Shown here piece after piece: positions 32,218 to 42,145 of a stretch of 58,377 nucleotides of DNA. Origin of the DNA: an uncultured Planctomycetales bacterium (lineage in GTDB: Bacteria; Omnitrophota; Gorgyraeia; Gygaellales; Profunditerraquicolaceae); contig CAYXSY010000010.1 in assembly GCA_964467905.1 (NCBI GenBank), positions 2,415 to 60,791 on the forward strand, written 5' to 3'. How positions within the stretch are numbered: the first letter of the stretch is position 1; each line of letters starts with the position of its first letter. Both the position numbers and the translations under genes were made by a program. Under the pieces are notes generated by a model that worked only from the letters and a program-made list of their open reading frames with translations, had not been told where the DNA came from and did no database searches.

Positions 32218-32324
32218 CTAAAGCTGCCACGGGACATATAAAAAGAGGGTTTATGTTCCAAGAAGAACATAAAAATATAGTAAATTTTCTAAAGAGAACA
32301 GTTTTTTCTGTTCTCTTTTTTTGT
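32218..32324 (+). repeat. 107-bp direct repeat copy 2
   Basis: 4 mismatches versus 20322-20428. Confidence 0.92.
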
Positions 32325-40300: not shown

Positions 40301-42145
40301 GACTACGGTTTAGAGACAAGCCGGACAGACGCAAGAAATTATACTACATATATAGATTATGATTTTGTTTATCAGGCATTTCCGGTAGCAATCAGGAATC
40401 CTAAGGGGCAGATTGAGAGAATGGCGTATAATGGTTCAGATAGCAGTTTTGGGCTATTTGGCCAACTACGTTCAAAAGCCGATGTTAATAGCAATGAGGT
40501 ATTATTTGAATATGACCAGTTTGGCAGAAAAACCAAGGTCATTGGTCCTCATGATGTAACCTCTACCTACGGTACAGAGTCTTATGAATATGGCATAGGA
40601 GGCCCGGGCTCAAATTATGTATTAACCCGTACAACTGAAGATAGCGGTACGGCAAACCATTTTATCCAGGTTAATATACTTGATGGATTTGAAAGAGTAA
40701 TCCAGGCAGCCAAGGAGTCGGAAGATGTACAGATATATAGCAACATAACTACAATTTATAACGAGCGTGGGGAAGTAGAGAAAATTTCATTGCCATACTT
40801 TAAGAGCGGAGGTTTGCGTACTTCTTATGTTTCCCCAGATGCTTCTGTCAAATGGGCACAGACTTTATATGATTGCATTGGGAGGATAAGTCAGGTAGTT
40901 AAGCCTGATAATACGACTATCAATAACGCTTATTATGGATGGACTACTATTATCACAGATGAAAACAGCCACCAGAAAGAGTTTGTGAGAGATGCTTATA
41001 GCAGGTTGGTAAGTGTTAAGGAGAAAAACGCAGGAGAAGAGTACGTAACGAGTTATGGATATAGCAACCTCGACGACCTCATTCTTATCATGGATCACGC
41101 GGGGAATAAAATTAGATTTGAATATGACAGTCTTAAGCGACGGGTTAAAATGGATGATCCTGGCTTGGGGGTATGGCTATATGATTATGATAATAATGGA
41201 AATCTTGTTAAAAGCACGAATGGCAATGGTAAGGTTATAAATTATGCATATGATGAGTTAAATCGCATTTTAACTAAGGATTACGTTGATAATATAAGTG
41301 TCGAAGTAGTTTATGTTTATGATGAAGCAGCTTCTACAAACGGGATAGGCAAGCGTACGAGTATGCGCGATTTATCTGGCTCTACCCGCTGGAATTACGA
41401 TAAGGAAGGCCGGATTGTGAGTCTCTCGAAAATAGTTGACGGGGTCAATTATAATGTGCAGCGGGAATATGACGCGATGAGCAGGATTAGGCGCATAGCT
41501 TTGCCTAATTCAAAAGAAGTACGTTTTAGTTATAATAACGGCGGTTTTGTAGAGAATGTTGACGGCTACGTCTCTAATGTGGATTACGACGCTTCCGGAA
41601 GGCAGGTCAGAATTGATTTTAATAATTCGGTTATTTCTTATTTTGAATACTATGACGATAATCAGAGATTGAAGAGAATTACATCCGGCGCTTTGCAGGA
41701 TTTAAATTATGAATATGATTACGTAGGCAATGTATCGAAAATAACCGATTTAGTCAGGGCGTTTACAAAAACATATAACTACGATGATTTAAACAGGCTG
41801 ACAGAGGGAGACGGTAACGTTTATGAGTATAATGCTATAGGCAATATTATTAAGTTAAACGGTCAAAATTATCTTTACCCTGATCTGCAGAGGCCGCATG
41901 CCGTCATCAACGACGGTTTAAATTCTTTTACCTATGATAACTGTGGGAATATGTTAAGCGGAGCAGGCAAAAGCATAACCTATGATTCTGAGAACCGGCC
42001 GGTATCTATAGCTAAAGATGGCAAAACCACTACTTTTGTTTATGATGGTGATGGCAAGAGGGCTAAAAAGACGGTGACCAAAGGTCTTTCGGTTACGAAT
42101 ACCATATATATTGAGGATTTATACGAAAAAGAATTCGTTCAATAA
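37307..42145 (+). CDS. Rhs/YD shell-only protein: signal peptide, SpvB-like region, 6 VCBS repeats, TcdB-mid-like region and YD repeats, with no Rhs core or cargo
   Basis: GNSWVGKGW; six D-x-N-x-D repeats; RQFRGF; YD repeats; ends at YDGDGKRAKK..IYIEDLYEKEFVQ*. Confidence 0.88.
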   Translation: MKANIKKITRLVVVMQLLLVNVACADSAGEGYVPRFSSSGPALVSLQLDASLFSGEAFTSVPITILPATANIQNKIKLALEYRSGGGNSWVGKGWELEAGYIARPNKFGANNSNNPYVLVLNGETQELVSMGSGQYRTKNETFRRIQFSGSVWQVREKDGTEYKFEISSAGRWVLTKVTDIHGVSINLSYNRSNNEQIYLSEINYPTGVGLTPYCKVKFVTEARSDLAPTYYYGSLYRINQRLKQIEISAEGHLQKKYVLNYATDGSSQVCYLNSIAEYGKNGIALPATTFSYKQPVSSSIFQSSGGWGSVTNPFSIDNGYVAAIGYIPVGLDIGIIDMNGDTLPDLIGCRLKATSPAYKYDWVVRLNNGSGFASQEYKWLDAEQSYYTFNFGSVTISQSFTLSRKTTLVDMNKDGLPDLVYSKYGGGINFASSTFGIDNIFVRYNTGSGFSGTENKLMDYTQCYYTFENYITPLIIGENMLLTDMNGDGLPDLVYNKQRGWQQCGDNKCKICDWVVRLNTGSGFSSETTWLTYDKAYFTYTIPDYPYGSDRFEPIDVLNNAMLIDINNDGLPDLVYNDFAESFKNCDYGNCAYGCSYNWKVRYNTGSAFSNTAVTLISNAPLYFYQINTVPQAKSVRIGHNGTFADVNGDGLVDFVFNKYQRDAADHPTVSWKVCLNLGNQFAGVTDLLGALGYSYNGGAVYANVSTYNSYFIDVNKDGMADFVYPKFTEQNYNNVKFGVQVYINKNTTATGLLTRQTSPYGGTTSMEYVSSANFDNTGGDGSNDLLFVMPVVSKITKNPGVGKSGSTTYNYDGGSYDIPNRQFRGFRHVKITDPLGYVNHTYFYQDNPRLGKPERQENSVVKTYNTYKQDSSAPYFTPLIQLDEYADSQCRRTAYQYDDYGNVTKTNYYGDINNTGDEKSVLTDFAINSSSWLINLPSRERVFMELDGSGALVAEAQYLYDNNSSYADIPVKGDLTKTRRYLDKQNIYLESSSAYNDYGLETSRTDARNYTTYIDYDFVYQAFPVAIRNPKGQIERMAYNGSDSSFGLFGQLRSKADVNSNEVLFEYDQFGRKTKVIGPHDVTSTYGTESYEYGIGGPGSNYVLTRTTEDSGTANHFIQVNILDGFERVIQAAKESEDVQIYSNITTIYNERGEVEKISLPYFKSGGLRTSYVSPDASVKWAQTLYDCIGRISQVVKPDNTTINNAYYGWTTIITDENSHQKEFVRDAYSRLVSVKEKNAGEEYVTSYGYSNLDDLILIMDHAGNKIRFEYDSLKRRVKMDDPGLGVWLYDYDNNGNLVKSTNGNGKVINYAYDELNRILTKDYVDNISVEVVYVYDEAASTNGIGKRTSMRDLSGSTRWNYDKEGRIVSLSKIVDGVNYNVQREYDAMSRIRRIALPNSKEVRFSYNNGGFVENVDGYVSNVDYDASGRQVRIDFNNSVISYFEYYDDNQRLKRITSGALQDLNYEYDYVGNVSKITDLVRAFTKTYNYDDLNRLTEGDGNVYEYNAIGNIIKLNGQNYLYPDLQRPHAVINDGLNSFTYDNCGNMLSGAGKSITYDSENRPVSIAKDGKTTTFVYDGDGKRAKKTVTKGLSVTNTIYIEDLYEKEFVQ

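Follow-up and report, generated by a model that had tools for sequence, protein, structure and literature searches.

The prevailing view of Rhs and Tc cocoons is that the enclosed toxin is carried on the same chain as the shell or, in Tc, on the half-shell subunit TcC. Canonical single-chain Rhs proteins, such as P. protegens RhsA and Photorhabdus laumondii Rhs1, have a beta-cocoon of YD repeats, an aspartyl-protease plug with a DPxG motif, a variable 9-20 kDa toxin at the C-terminus, an immunity gene downstream and orphan toxin modules. In the Photorhabdus protein, the C-terminal plug sits deep inside the barrel and carries the aspartyl-protease motif, of which Asp-1338 is needed for cleavage (PMC8636562). 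The BC sub-complex of Tc toxins (TcdB2-TccC3, YenB-YenC2) forms its cocoon from two polypeptides, one of them an exchangeable toxin-bearing subunit, with SpvB, an FG-GAP beta-propeller and TcdB_midN in the N-terminal half. Teneurins and bacterial teneurin-like proteins also have a YD shell, a homologous plug inside it and shell-associated immunoglobulin-like (Ig-like) domains; they are single chains in which the N-terminal end is closed by the Ig or FN-plug, and the C-terminal domain of metazoan teneurins is found outside their shell (PMC8636562, PMC13018210). Here, we analysed a stretch of 58,377 nucleotides (nt), hereafter the window, from contig CAYXSY010000010.1 of an uncultured bacterium placed in Omnitrophota. 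It encodes one canonical Rhs (Rhs1) and, downstream of it, a second Rhs system that shares the features listed above with canonical Rhs. Unlike canonical Rhs, this second system has its shell and its plug-toxin on two polypeptides, each with a putative signal peptide, with the plug gene coming first and Ig-like domains standing N-terminal to the plug. All window features given below lie on the forward strand.

The first gene of the pair (32253-35738) is an intact open reading frame (ORF) with an ATG start, encoding a carrier-plug-toxin protein of 1161 amino acids (aa), hereafter the carrier, for which an exact-sequence look-up returned no matching record. A putative Sec signal peptide (aa 1-32, 32253-32348; ..FFCALPSMVLA/VD, the slash marking the predicted cut), 77% identical to the N-terminus of the ORF at 20357-21700, is followed by three NBR1-like Ig domains (aa 33-384, 32349-33404; Pfam N_BRCA1_IG in three stretches, E = 4.6e-16) and by three Ig-like modules of about 145 aa, termed rep130 (aa 385-830, 33405-34742), which are internal repeats homologous to the same ORF. 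The carrier turns to Rhs sequence at aa 835 (KERIYIY, nt 34755), where it reads KERIYIYLNGQRMSMEENGKKTFYHNDHLGG, and aa 835-962 (34755-35138) comprise the last shell hairpin and the Rhs core plug. The Rhs-associated core profile TIGR03696 matches aa 882-962 with 82 bits, the DPTGH motif occupies aa 958-962, and no YD repeats upstream of the plug were matched by a profile of the shell. The remaining 199 aa (35139-35735) form a variable C-terminal toxin region, which diverges abruptly past the DPxG motif from the carrier of the closest related locus, L044. The second gene (37307-42145) encodes a TcB/TcC-like YD shell of 1612 aa with a probable signal peptide and Pfam matches to SpvB (1.3e-5), FG-GAP_3 (2.6e-10), TcdB_toxin_midN (6.7e-19), RHS_repeat (5.5e-28) and YD_repeat_2x (2.5e-16), whose C-terminal end reads ..TIYIEDLYEKEFVQ before the stop. 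TIGR03696 found no match in the shell ORF; the core is thus not contiguous with the shell but sits in the carrier only, encoded 1.6 kb upstream. Both signal peptides were assigned by eye from a basic n-region, a hydrophobic stretch and a VLA/VD or ACA/DS site, in line with the first-pass annotation of the window, which had given each half a signal peptide of its own and whose ORFs and quoted sequences were as described on re-reading.

That annotation had also claimed that the two pieces abut with complementary breakpoints. Rhs1 (21704-28462, 2252 aa), which holds shell, core and C-terminal region in one ORF, served as the internal comparator, and profiles made from the shell relatives and from the plug regions of the carriers were matched to it. 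The shell-profile match stopped at residue 1829 and the plug-profile match began at residue 1833; therefore, shell and carrier abut with a gap of three residues and zero overlap. Identity between the carrier core and that of Rhs1 is 51%, and between the shell ORF and the shell of Rhs1 it is 32%. As first proposed, the split did not arise by frameshift or nonsense mutation, which is ruled out by the order of the genes, by a signal peptide on each half and by the conservation described below, in contrast to locus L029, which holds a simply frameshifted Rhs. The split of this Rhs into a shell ORF and a plug-toxin ORF is therefore confirmed.

The arrangement recurs in independently assembled loci. 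The order of carrier-plug-toxin gene, one or two small ORFs and core-less shell was found, as in the window, in five of six other Omnitrophota loci, which come from JGI and Logan assemblies (L004/L005), an NCBI Omnitrophota metagenome-assembled genome (MAG; L006, the same as L010), further Logan assemblies (L007/L008 and L044/L045) and Omnitrophica CG11 (L011). A search for co-located core-less shells and shell-less cores with the same breakpoint, as the earlier annotation had suggested, thus yielded five other loci. A chimeric contig could in principle give the reversed gene order, and the source organism is uncultured; nothing else speaks for such an artefact, and its probability is vanishingly small because the same order recurs across different samples, in JGI, NCBI MAG and several Logan assemblies. 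In a scan of species-representative genomes, the Omnitrophota type was found only in L010 (the L006 contig) and L011, and the majority of matches were canonical Rhs proteins or orphan arrays of Bacillota.

Carriers from these loci share the plug and the junction. The three complete carriers of relatives have 758, 1059 and 1596 aa, each with a signal peptide by eye, and those of L011 and L044 are incomplete, running off the contig end. Their N-terminal domains are unrelated from locus to locus, and the junction common to them reads D(T/S)IE..(K/P)ERIYIYLNGQR(I/V)AMEENGKKxF(F/Y)HNDHLG. The plugs of the relatives are 66-71% identical to the window plug, compared with 49% for the plug of Rhs1, and aa 24-967 of the carrier are 69% identical to the L044 carrier, whose locus also has the closest shell (79% identity). 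Residues D106, D133, P134 and G136 of the plug are invariant across the carriers and Rhs1; the carrier therefore has the DPxG autoproteolysis motif and the conserved aspartates, and its catalysis is predicted. The divergent carrier of L011 (1-1278) has the cleavage motif DLTG in place of DPxG, and the shell end of that locus is at the unchanged position (..TVYVKNLFEKTI before the stop).

The shell is core-less throughout its close relatives. A set of 13 relatives (P0122-P0134) from Omnitrophota MAGs and metagenomes, at 79% down to 43% identity, included 11 complete proteins of 1588-1649 aa, and all 13 lacked the core and ended in (T/S)(I/V)Y(I/V)(E/D/G)(D/N/E)L(Y/F)EK(E/D) followed by 1-8 residues and the stop. 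Fused proteins, which as the sole form among relatives would by the first-pass annotation have refuted its reading, appeared in the search only at 35% identity or below, as canonical Rhs of 2000-2250 aa that included Rhs1. In the window, the terminal strand TIYIEDLYEKE (42101-42133) has a mean column identity of 0.92 versus 0.68 for the whole shell and ranks third in conservation among the 1602 windows of 11 residues. Shell and carrier are both under purifying selection: between the window and L044, the ratio of nonsynonymous to synonymous substitution rates (dN/dS) was 0.11 for the shell, 0.09 for carrier aa 24-967, 0.06 for the junction and plug and 0.22 for a conserved 83-aa ORF before the shell, which are rough values at a dS of 1.1-2.3, near saturation, yet far from neutrality. 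Relaxed selection, another concern raised at the outset, was thus found in neither half. On assembly, on fused relatives and on selection alike, the outcome favours the first-pass interpretation. In a comparison of six loci, the identity of the shells correlated with that of the plugs (Pearson r = 0.85 over 15 pairs, which are non-independent). A recent rearrangement or decaying pseudogenes, that is, a shell that lost its core beside an accidental fusion of Ig domains and core, could be suspected from the IS200-type transposase near related loci and from frameshifted Rhs genes elsewhere (L029 and the shell of L001). Such decay is highly improbable given intact ORFs with identical ends across 43-79% identity, a dN/dS of about 0.1 in both halves and a gene order kept in five other loci. 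One protein, P0082, was considered as a natural fused form (shell-NBR1-core) and rejected; its linker resembles a relic signal peptide, and a secondary fusion or read-through is more likely.

To place the plug among its homologues, the 140-aa window plug was compared by phmmer with 1.84 billion representative sequences, giving 203,650 matches at E <= 1e-3. None of the 30 best matches was a canonical Rhs, the first of which appeared at rank 31 with 53% identity. At least 11 of these 30 were complete, with a signal peptide, an N-terminal region, the plug, a C-terminal region and the junction (K/V)ERIYIYLNGQR; a separate homologue search with the plug alone as query gave solely fragments of less than 250 aa. 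Two more of the 30 are the minimal plug-toxins P0310 (363 aa) and P0311 (420 aa), in which no more than about 10-20 residues separate the plug from the signal peptide. Therefore, the adhesin-like region is variable and dispensable, and what stays constant is the combination of signal peptide, plug and toxin. The adhesin-like part of the carrier proposed in the first-pass annotation is accordingly optional.

Comparison with solved structures located the plug. Carrier aa 826-965 align with the final 110-120 residues at the very C-terminus of solved cocoons, namely residues 2071-2190 of 2191 in TccC3 (4o9x), 551-663 of 664 in TccC2 (6l7i), 595-689 of 690 in YenC2 (4igl) and 1042-1151 of 1152 in RhsP (8h8a). 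In an AlphaFold2 model of carrier aa 826-1161, the first 100 residues were predicted as beta-hairpins with a block-mean predicted local distance difference test score (pLDDT) of 85-96, and the pLDDT of the C-terminal region was below 50 over most of its length. A Foldseek search with the plug model retrieved the plug regions of teneurins, TcC and Rhs proteins, with 36 matches at E <= 1e-3 and teneurins at the top. The rep130 module of about 145 aa was modelled as an all-beta Ig-like sandwich (pLDDT 97.9); Foldseek found no specific structural relative of it and returned generic Ig-like sandwiches with TM scores of about 0.4-0.5.

Splits of the same kind were found at other positions in other bacteria. 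The first homologue search gave about 20 proteins of 680-1100 aa from soil bacteria and proteobacteria, in which NBR1-like Ig domains precede the core. In these soil-type carriers the Ig domains reach the core within 8-10 residues, the core starts exactly at xYFIHxDHLNTPR, and the core-less shells end one hairpin later than those of Omnitrophota (..KLIEYMYLAGKRVAQRVSP in Pseudoduganella armeniaca, ..RELIYLGDIPVGVVQ in L002 and ..ETIWLEDLPVAVAR in L003, each before the stop). A metagenome scan with the soil-type plug matched at least 579 stretches, many on short contigs, and 80 loci were kept for classification. Their core-bearing ORFs comprised 45 non-shell Ig-like carriers, 7 NBR1 carriers, 32 truncated or short ORFs and 6 canonical shell-core proteins. 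A core-less shell stood directly upstream of the carrier in 11 soil-type loci with enough upstream sequence, the shell stop overlapping the carrier ATG by 4 nt in nine of them and lying about 16 nt before it in the other two. Soil-type shells with both ends in the contig mostly have 1244-1357 aa, most end in ..KRE(L/Y)(I/L)YL(G/N)DIP(V/L)(G/A)V(V/I)Q and the stop, and the carriers whose 5' end lies inside the contig have clear signal peptides by eye. Fused members read ..YLGDxPVAVxDxxxxxF followed directly by YFIHxDHL, so the soil-type break falls in a loop.

Two further loci are broken elsewhere in the cocoon. In L013, from a gammaproteobacterial MAG, a 459-aa protein consists of a signal peptide, two or three YD repeats (shell-profile positions 1537-1603), the plug and a C-terminal region, and a shell of 2159 aa downstream of it covers profile positions 36-1535, followed by lectin-like and PA14-like domains and no core. 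This break, between profile positions 1535 and 1537, lies about 70 aa earlier in the shell. In L128, on a plasmid of the cultured bacterium Massilia violaceinigra (NZ_CP024609, 4715-9819), a DUF6531-type Rhs is split mid-shell into 902 and 799 aa, each half with a signal peptide by eye and the genes overlapping by 4 nt, which from its sequence is a TcB/TcC-like split outside the Tc family. A Janthinobacterium plasmid match proved on inspection to be a canonical Rhs with N-terminal NBR1 domains and was not counted as a split. In all split pairs examined, no cocoon part was duplicated and none was missing, and such complementary breaks at three positions in unrelated lineages argue that the two proteins need each other.

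Taken together, these results make it reasonably probable that the two genes specify a two-polypeptide Rhs cocoon in which the carrier plug would close the shell in trans. The main alternative is that the carrier is an autonomous secreted toxin, its core acting as a self-cleaving release module, and that the shell has a separate role as adhesin, decoy or chaperone, so that the genes are linked by common descent or co-regulation only. This would fit the plug-toxin genes of L074 and L109, the minimal proteins P0310 and P0311, the short core-plus-toxin ORFs abundant in metagenomes, the confident folding of the plug hairpins alone in AlphaFold2 and the canonical Rhs that takes the place of a carrier at L046. 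We nevertheless regard it as unlikely. It does not account for breakpoints that are exactly complementary at three positions in unrelated lineages, with hairpins never duplicated or missing, for the extreme conservation of the last shell strand and the first carrier strand, for the 4-nt overlaps at gene junctions, or for the synteny of carrier and shell kept down to 37-43% shell identity.

For closure in trans, a proposed course of events can be outlined. Sec would export both the shell and the carrier, and the free C-terminal toxin of about 190 aa would go in at the open end of the shell. The first carrier strand, RIYIYL, and the last shell strand, TIYIEDLY, may then pair by beta-strand complementation, so that the plug seals the cocoon and the Ig-like or lectin-like N-terminal domains of the carrier remain outside. 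Autocleavage between G and H of DPTGH would release the toxin within the cocoon, the downstream immunity protein would shield the producer, and recombination just past the plug would swap toxin-immunity modules and leave orphan fragments. Trans closure is topologically feasible: with the toxin end free, nothing has to be threaded. TcB/TcC is a precedent for a two-chain cocoon.

Several observations weigh against a two-protein cocoon. The shell relative at L046 is preceded by a canonical Rhs in the place of a carrier, and the plug-toxin genes at L074 and L109 have no shell within 9 kb. The only cultured example, Pseudoduganella armeniaca (L001; CP028324, 12623-16359), has a shell frameshifted near locus position 15210 into ORFs of 905 and 340 aa, either by sequencing error or as a pseudogene, next to a gene for an NBR1-plug-HNH toxin. 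The signal-peptide calls rest on inspection by eye, the dN/dS values are rough and the co-divergence pairs are non-independent, as stated above, and the complex of shell and carrier is predicted from sequence comparison. A toxin of about 20 kDa would also have to enter a separately exported shell. The shell is TcB-like, and no TcA-like family match was found among about 30 larger window ORFs compared with Pfam, a set that took in the Rhs-flanking ORFs but neither the smaller ORFs (at 1-4.9 kb, 10.4-13.9 kb and 51.5-58 kb) nor other parts of the genome; the same ORFs showed no other delivery machine for the shell.

A variant of the two-polypeptide cocoon would have a generic shell, formed beforehand, loaded after export by alternative plug-toxin cartridges, several per genome and with different or no targeting domains. 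The unfolded C-terminal toxin would be inserted into the open cocoon, with its own plug as the seal. Hints of this come from L099, where two carriers surround a single shell, from the carriers in tandem at L062 and L066, and from L074 and L109, whose carriers have no shell beside them, and we hold it, tentatively, to be possible though doubtful. For the reusable shell that had been envisaged for the window, the hints would be confined to the multi-carrier loci L099, L062 and L066. If the cartridge variant is true, one shell type could serve many toxins and target specificities, with post-translational loading in trans.

The toxin end of the carrier behaves as expected of a polymorphic toxin, with a hypervariable C-terminal toxin, an adjacent small ORF and an orphan module. 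Across the loci of the relatives, the carrier sequences are unrelated past ..YxDPxG, and so are the small ORFs downstream. The C-terminal region of L006 has a class-2 lipase or alpha-beta hydrolase domain, that of L044 has weaker alpha/beta-hydrolase matches, that of L007 has a weak TNT match, and one among those compared has no family match. The window and L044 differ in both C-terminal region and immunity gene despite 69% carrier and 79% shell identity. In the window, a candidate immunity gene of 104 aa (35735-36049), so named by its position, overlaps the carrier stop by 4 nt and has no homologue in the relatives' loci and no family match. The carrier toxin region gave a weak, full-length match to Tox-ART-HYD1 (E = 0.068), from which a toxin identity was rejected because the match is sub-threshold and the AlphaFold2 model unreliable. 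In carriers, the median length of the C-terminal region is 191 aa (interquartile range 176-214, maximum 307), and these lengths do not go beyond those of canonical relatives (median 275 aa, maximum 318), which fits a size limit set by the cavity, short of proof.

An orphan toxin fragment without a start codon follows at 36104-36559. It opens at a linker, IPGLSATAAQAGRRTVSRAVDA, that is 86% identical to carrier aa 1008-1035 and continues into a TNT NADase (NAD+ glycohydrolase) domain (PF14021, 29.6 bits versus a cut-off of 27); a 125-aa ORF overlapping its end (36556-36933) is by position the candidate immunity gene of this orphan toxin and has no family match. A start-less toxin fragment on a shared linker is what toxin displacement classically leaves behind in Rhs and contact-dependent growth inhibition (CDI) loci. 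Orphan Rhs core-extension/toxin-immunity cassettes in Salmonella, E. coli and Serratia are likewise shell-less fragments followed by immunity genes, and the fragment at 36104-36559 is a 5'-truncated cassette of this type. The carrier is not: besides an ATG start and a putative signal peptide it possesses an N-terminal region of 830 aa, and it is a complete gene under purifying selection that is paired with a complementary core-less shell. The carrier could still be imagined as a recombination reservoir that donates core-toxin-immunity cassettes to the canonical Rhs1, like orphan Rhs modules, since Rhs1 and a true orphan fragment are both in the window and recombination is known to exchange the C-terminal regions of Rhs loci (PMC3482391). 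We consider this very unlikely, as the start codon, the signal peptide and the N-terminal domains under purifying selection argue against it, the cores of carrier and Rhs1 share only 51% protein identity, and the conserved core-less shell is left unexplained.

With its shell, plug and exchangeable toxin, the window system is built from known parts and, in its predicted working, is most like the Tc BC sub-complex, with which it would share a two-polypeptide cocoon, the exchangeable toxin-bearing subunit and the domains of the N-terminal half. It does not fit the single-chain Rhs definition, as its core does not continue the shell in one chain, and it does not fit the TcC definition, as the second subunit brings only the hairpin and plug and no TcA was found. 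Specifically, TcC supplies about half of the cocoon, whereas the carrier supplies only aa 835-962, one hairpin plus the plug; unlike in Tc, both window proteins have putative Sec signal peptides and no TcA was seen among the window ORFs scanned. In the full-text literature searched, which covers journals in part, we found no description of a split at the level of the plug or of an Ig-carrier-plug-toxin paired with a core-less shell; a 2012 survey of polymorphic toxins noted lectin domains near the toxin module and not the split arrangement. A conserved and widespread two-protein version would separate the container, the lid with its cargo and the targeting domains. Since the same split occurs in many uncultured bacteria, it offers a test of cocoon loading, and co-expression would allow loading, plug docking and shell-dependent autocleavage to be probed. 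If the two-polypeptide cocoon is true, it also suggests a modular scaffold for enclosing other cargo, and the thousands of repeat-less "RHS repeat-associated core domain-containing proteins" and core-less "RHS repeat proteins" from soil and groundwater metagenomes need not be fragments or pseudogenes.

Between the two genes, the conserved 83-aa ORF (37059-37310) has an N-terminal hydrophobic segment and a coiled coil and overlaps the shell start by 4 nt. L044 (63% identity) and L006 (46%) have homologues at the equivalent position, and L046 has one as well (39%); the product may be an assembly or anchoring factor. A consensus scan found no plus-strand terminator-like site from the carrier stop to the start of the shell gene, and a strong terminator-like hairpin with a 13-bp stem and a T-run, a consensus match only, follows the shell gene at 42296-42329.

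The canonical Rhs1 comprises SpvB, FG-GAP, TcdB_toxin_midN, RHS repeats, TIGR03696 (aa 1881-1960), DPTGH and a C-terminal region, an architecture of the TcB/TcC-fusion type. An insert of about 190 aa (..LRPGWNFFSLPLEP..; aa ~1608-1796, window 26525-27091) lies one YD repeat upstream of its plug and may form an external domain close to the plug end of the cocoon; the canonical Rhs of L046 has the same insert and a C-terminal region similar to that of Rhs1. The C-terminal region of Rhs1 (27584-28459) opens with long hydrophobic glycine-rich stretches (..IIAGAIIGAIIGGAVAAATGG..), and because of these its sequence suggests a membrane-inserting toxin. Immediately upstream, a secreted protein of 447 aa (20357-21700), whose stop is 3 nt upstream of Rhs1, has three Ig-like modules as in the carrier, with 38-42% identity to the carrier modules by tblastn and 77% identity between the signal peptides. 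In other Omnitrophota proteins (P0024, P0027, P0029, P0032, P0033, P0040 and P0041), the rep130 module is N-terminal to ZU5 and SpvB in one chain. The module therefore occurs free, fused to the N-terminus of a shell, or fused to a plug.

The region is part of a bacterial chromosome, with the housekeeping genes recA, recX, alaS, hisD, hisB, pgi and a fabF-like gene on both sides, and the best relatives of the Rhs-associated proteins of the window are in Candidatus Omnitrophota MAGs. An IS200/IS605-type Y1 transposase lies beside the Rhs1 locus (19643-20200), and transposases of the same type lie beside the core-less shells of L006 (15001-15591) and L046 (9705-10295). Just upstream of the carrier, an 87-aa MazE/AbrB-like antitoxin ORF overlaps a 92-aa ORF without a family match (31608-32146), probably a small toxin-antitoxin pair. 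A DUF5674 ORF with an overlapping 110-aa ORF lies downstream of the shell (42694-43364), and an AbiEii-like nucleotidyltransferase is encoded upstream of the island (13900-14445).

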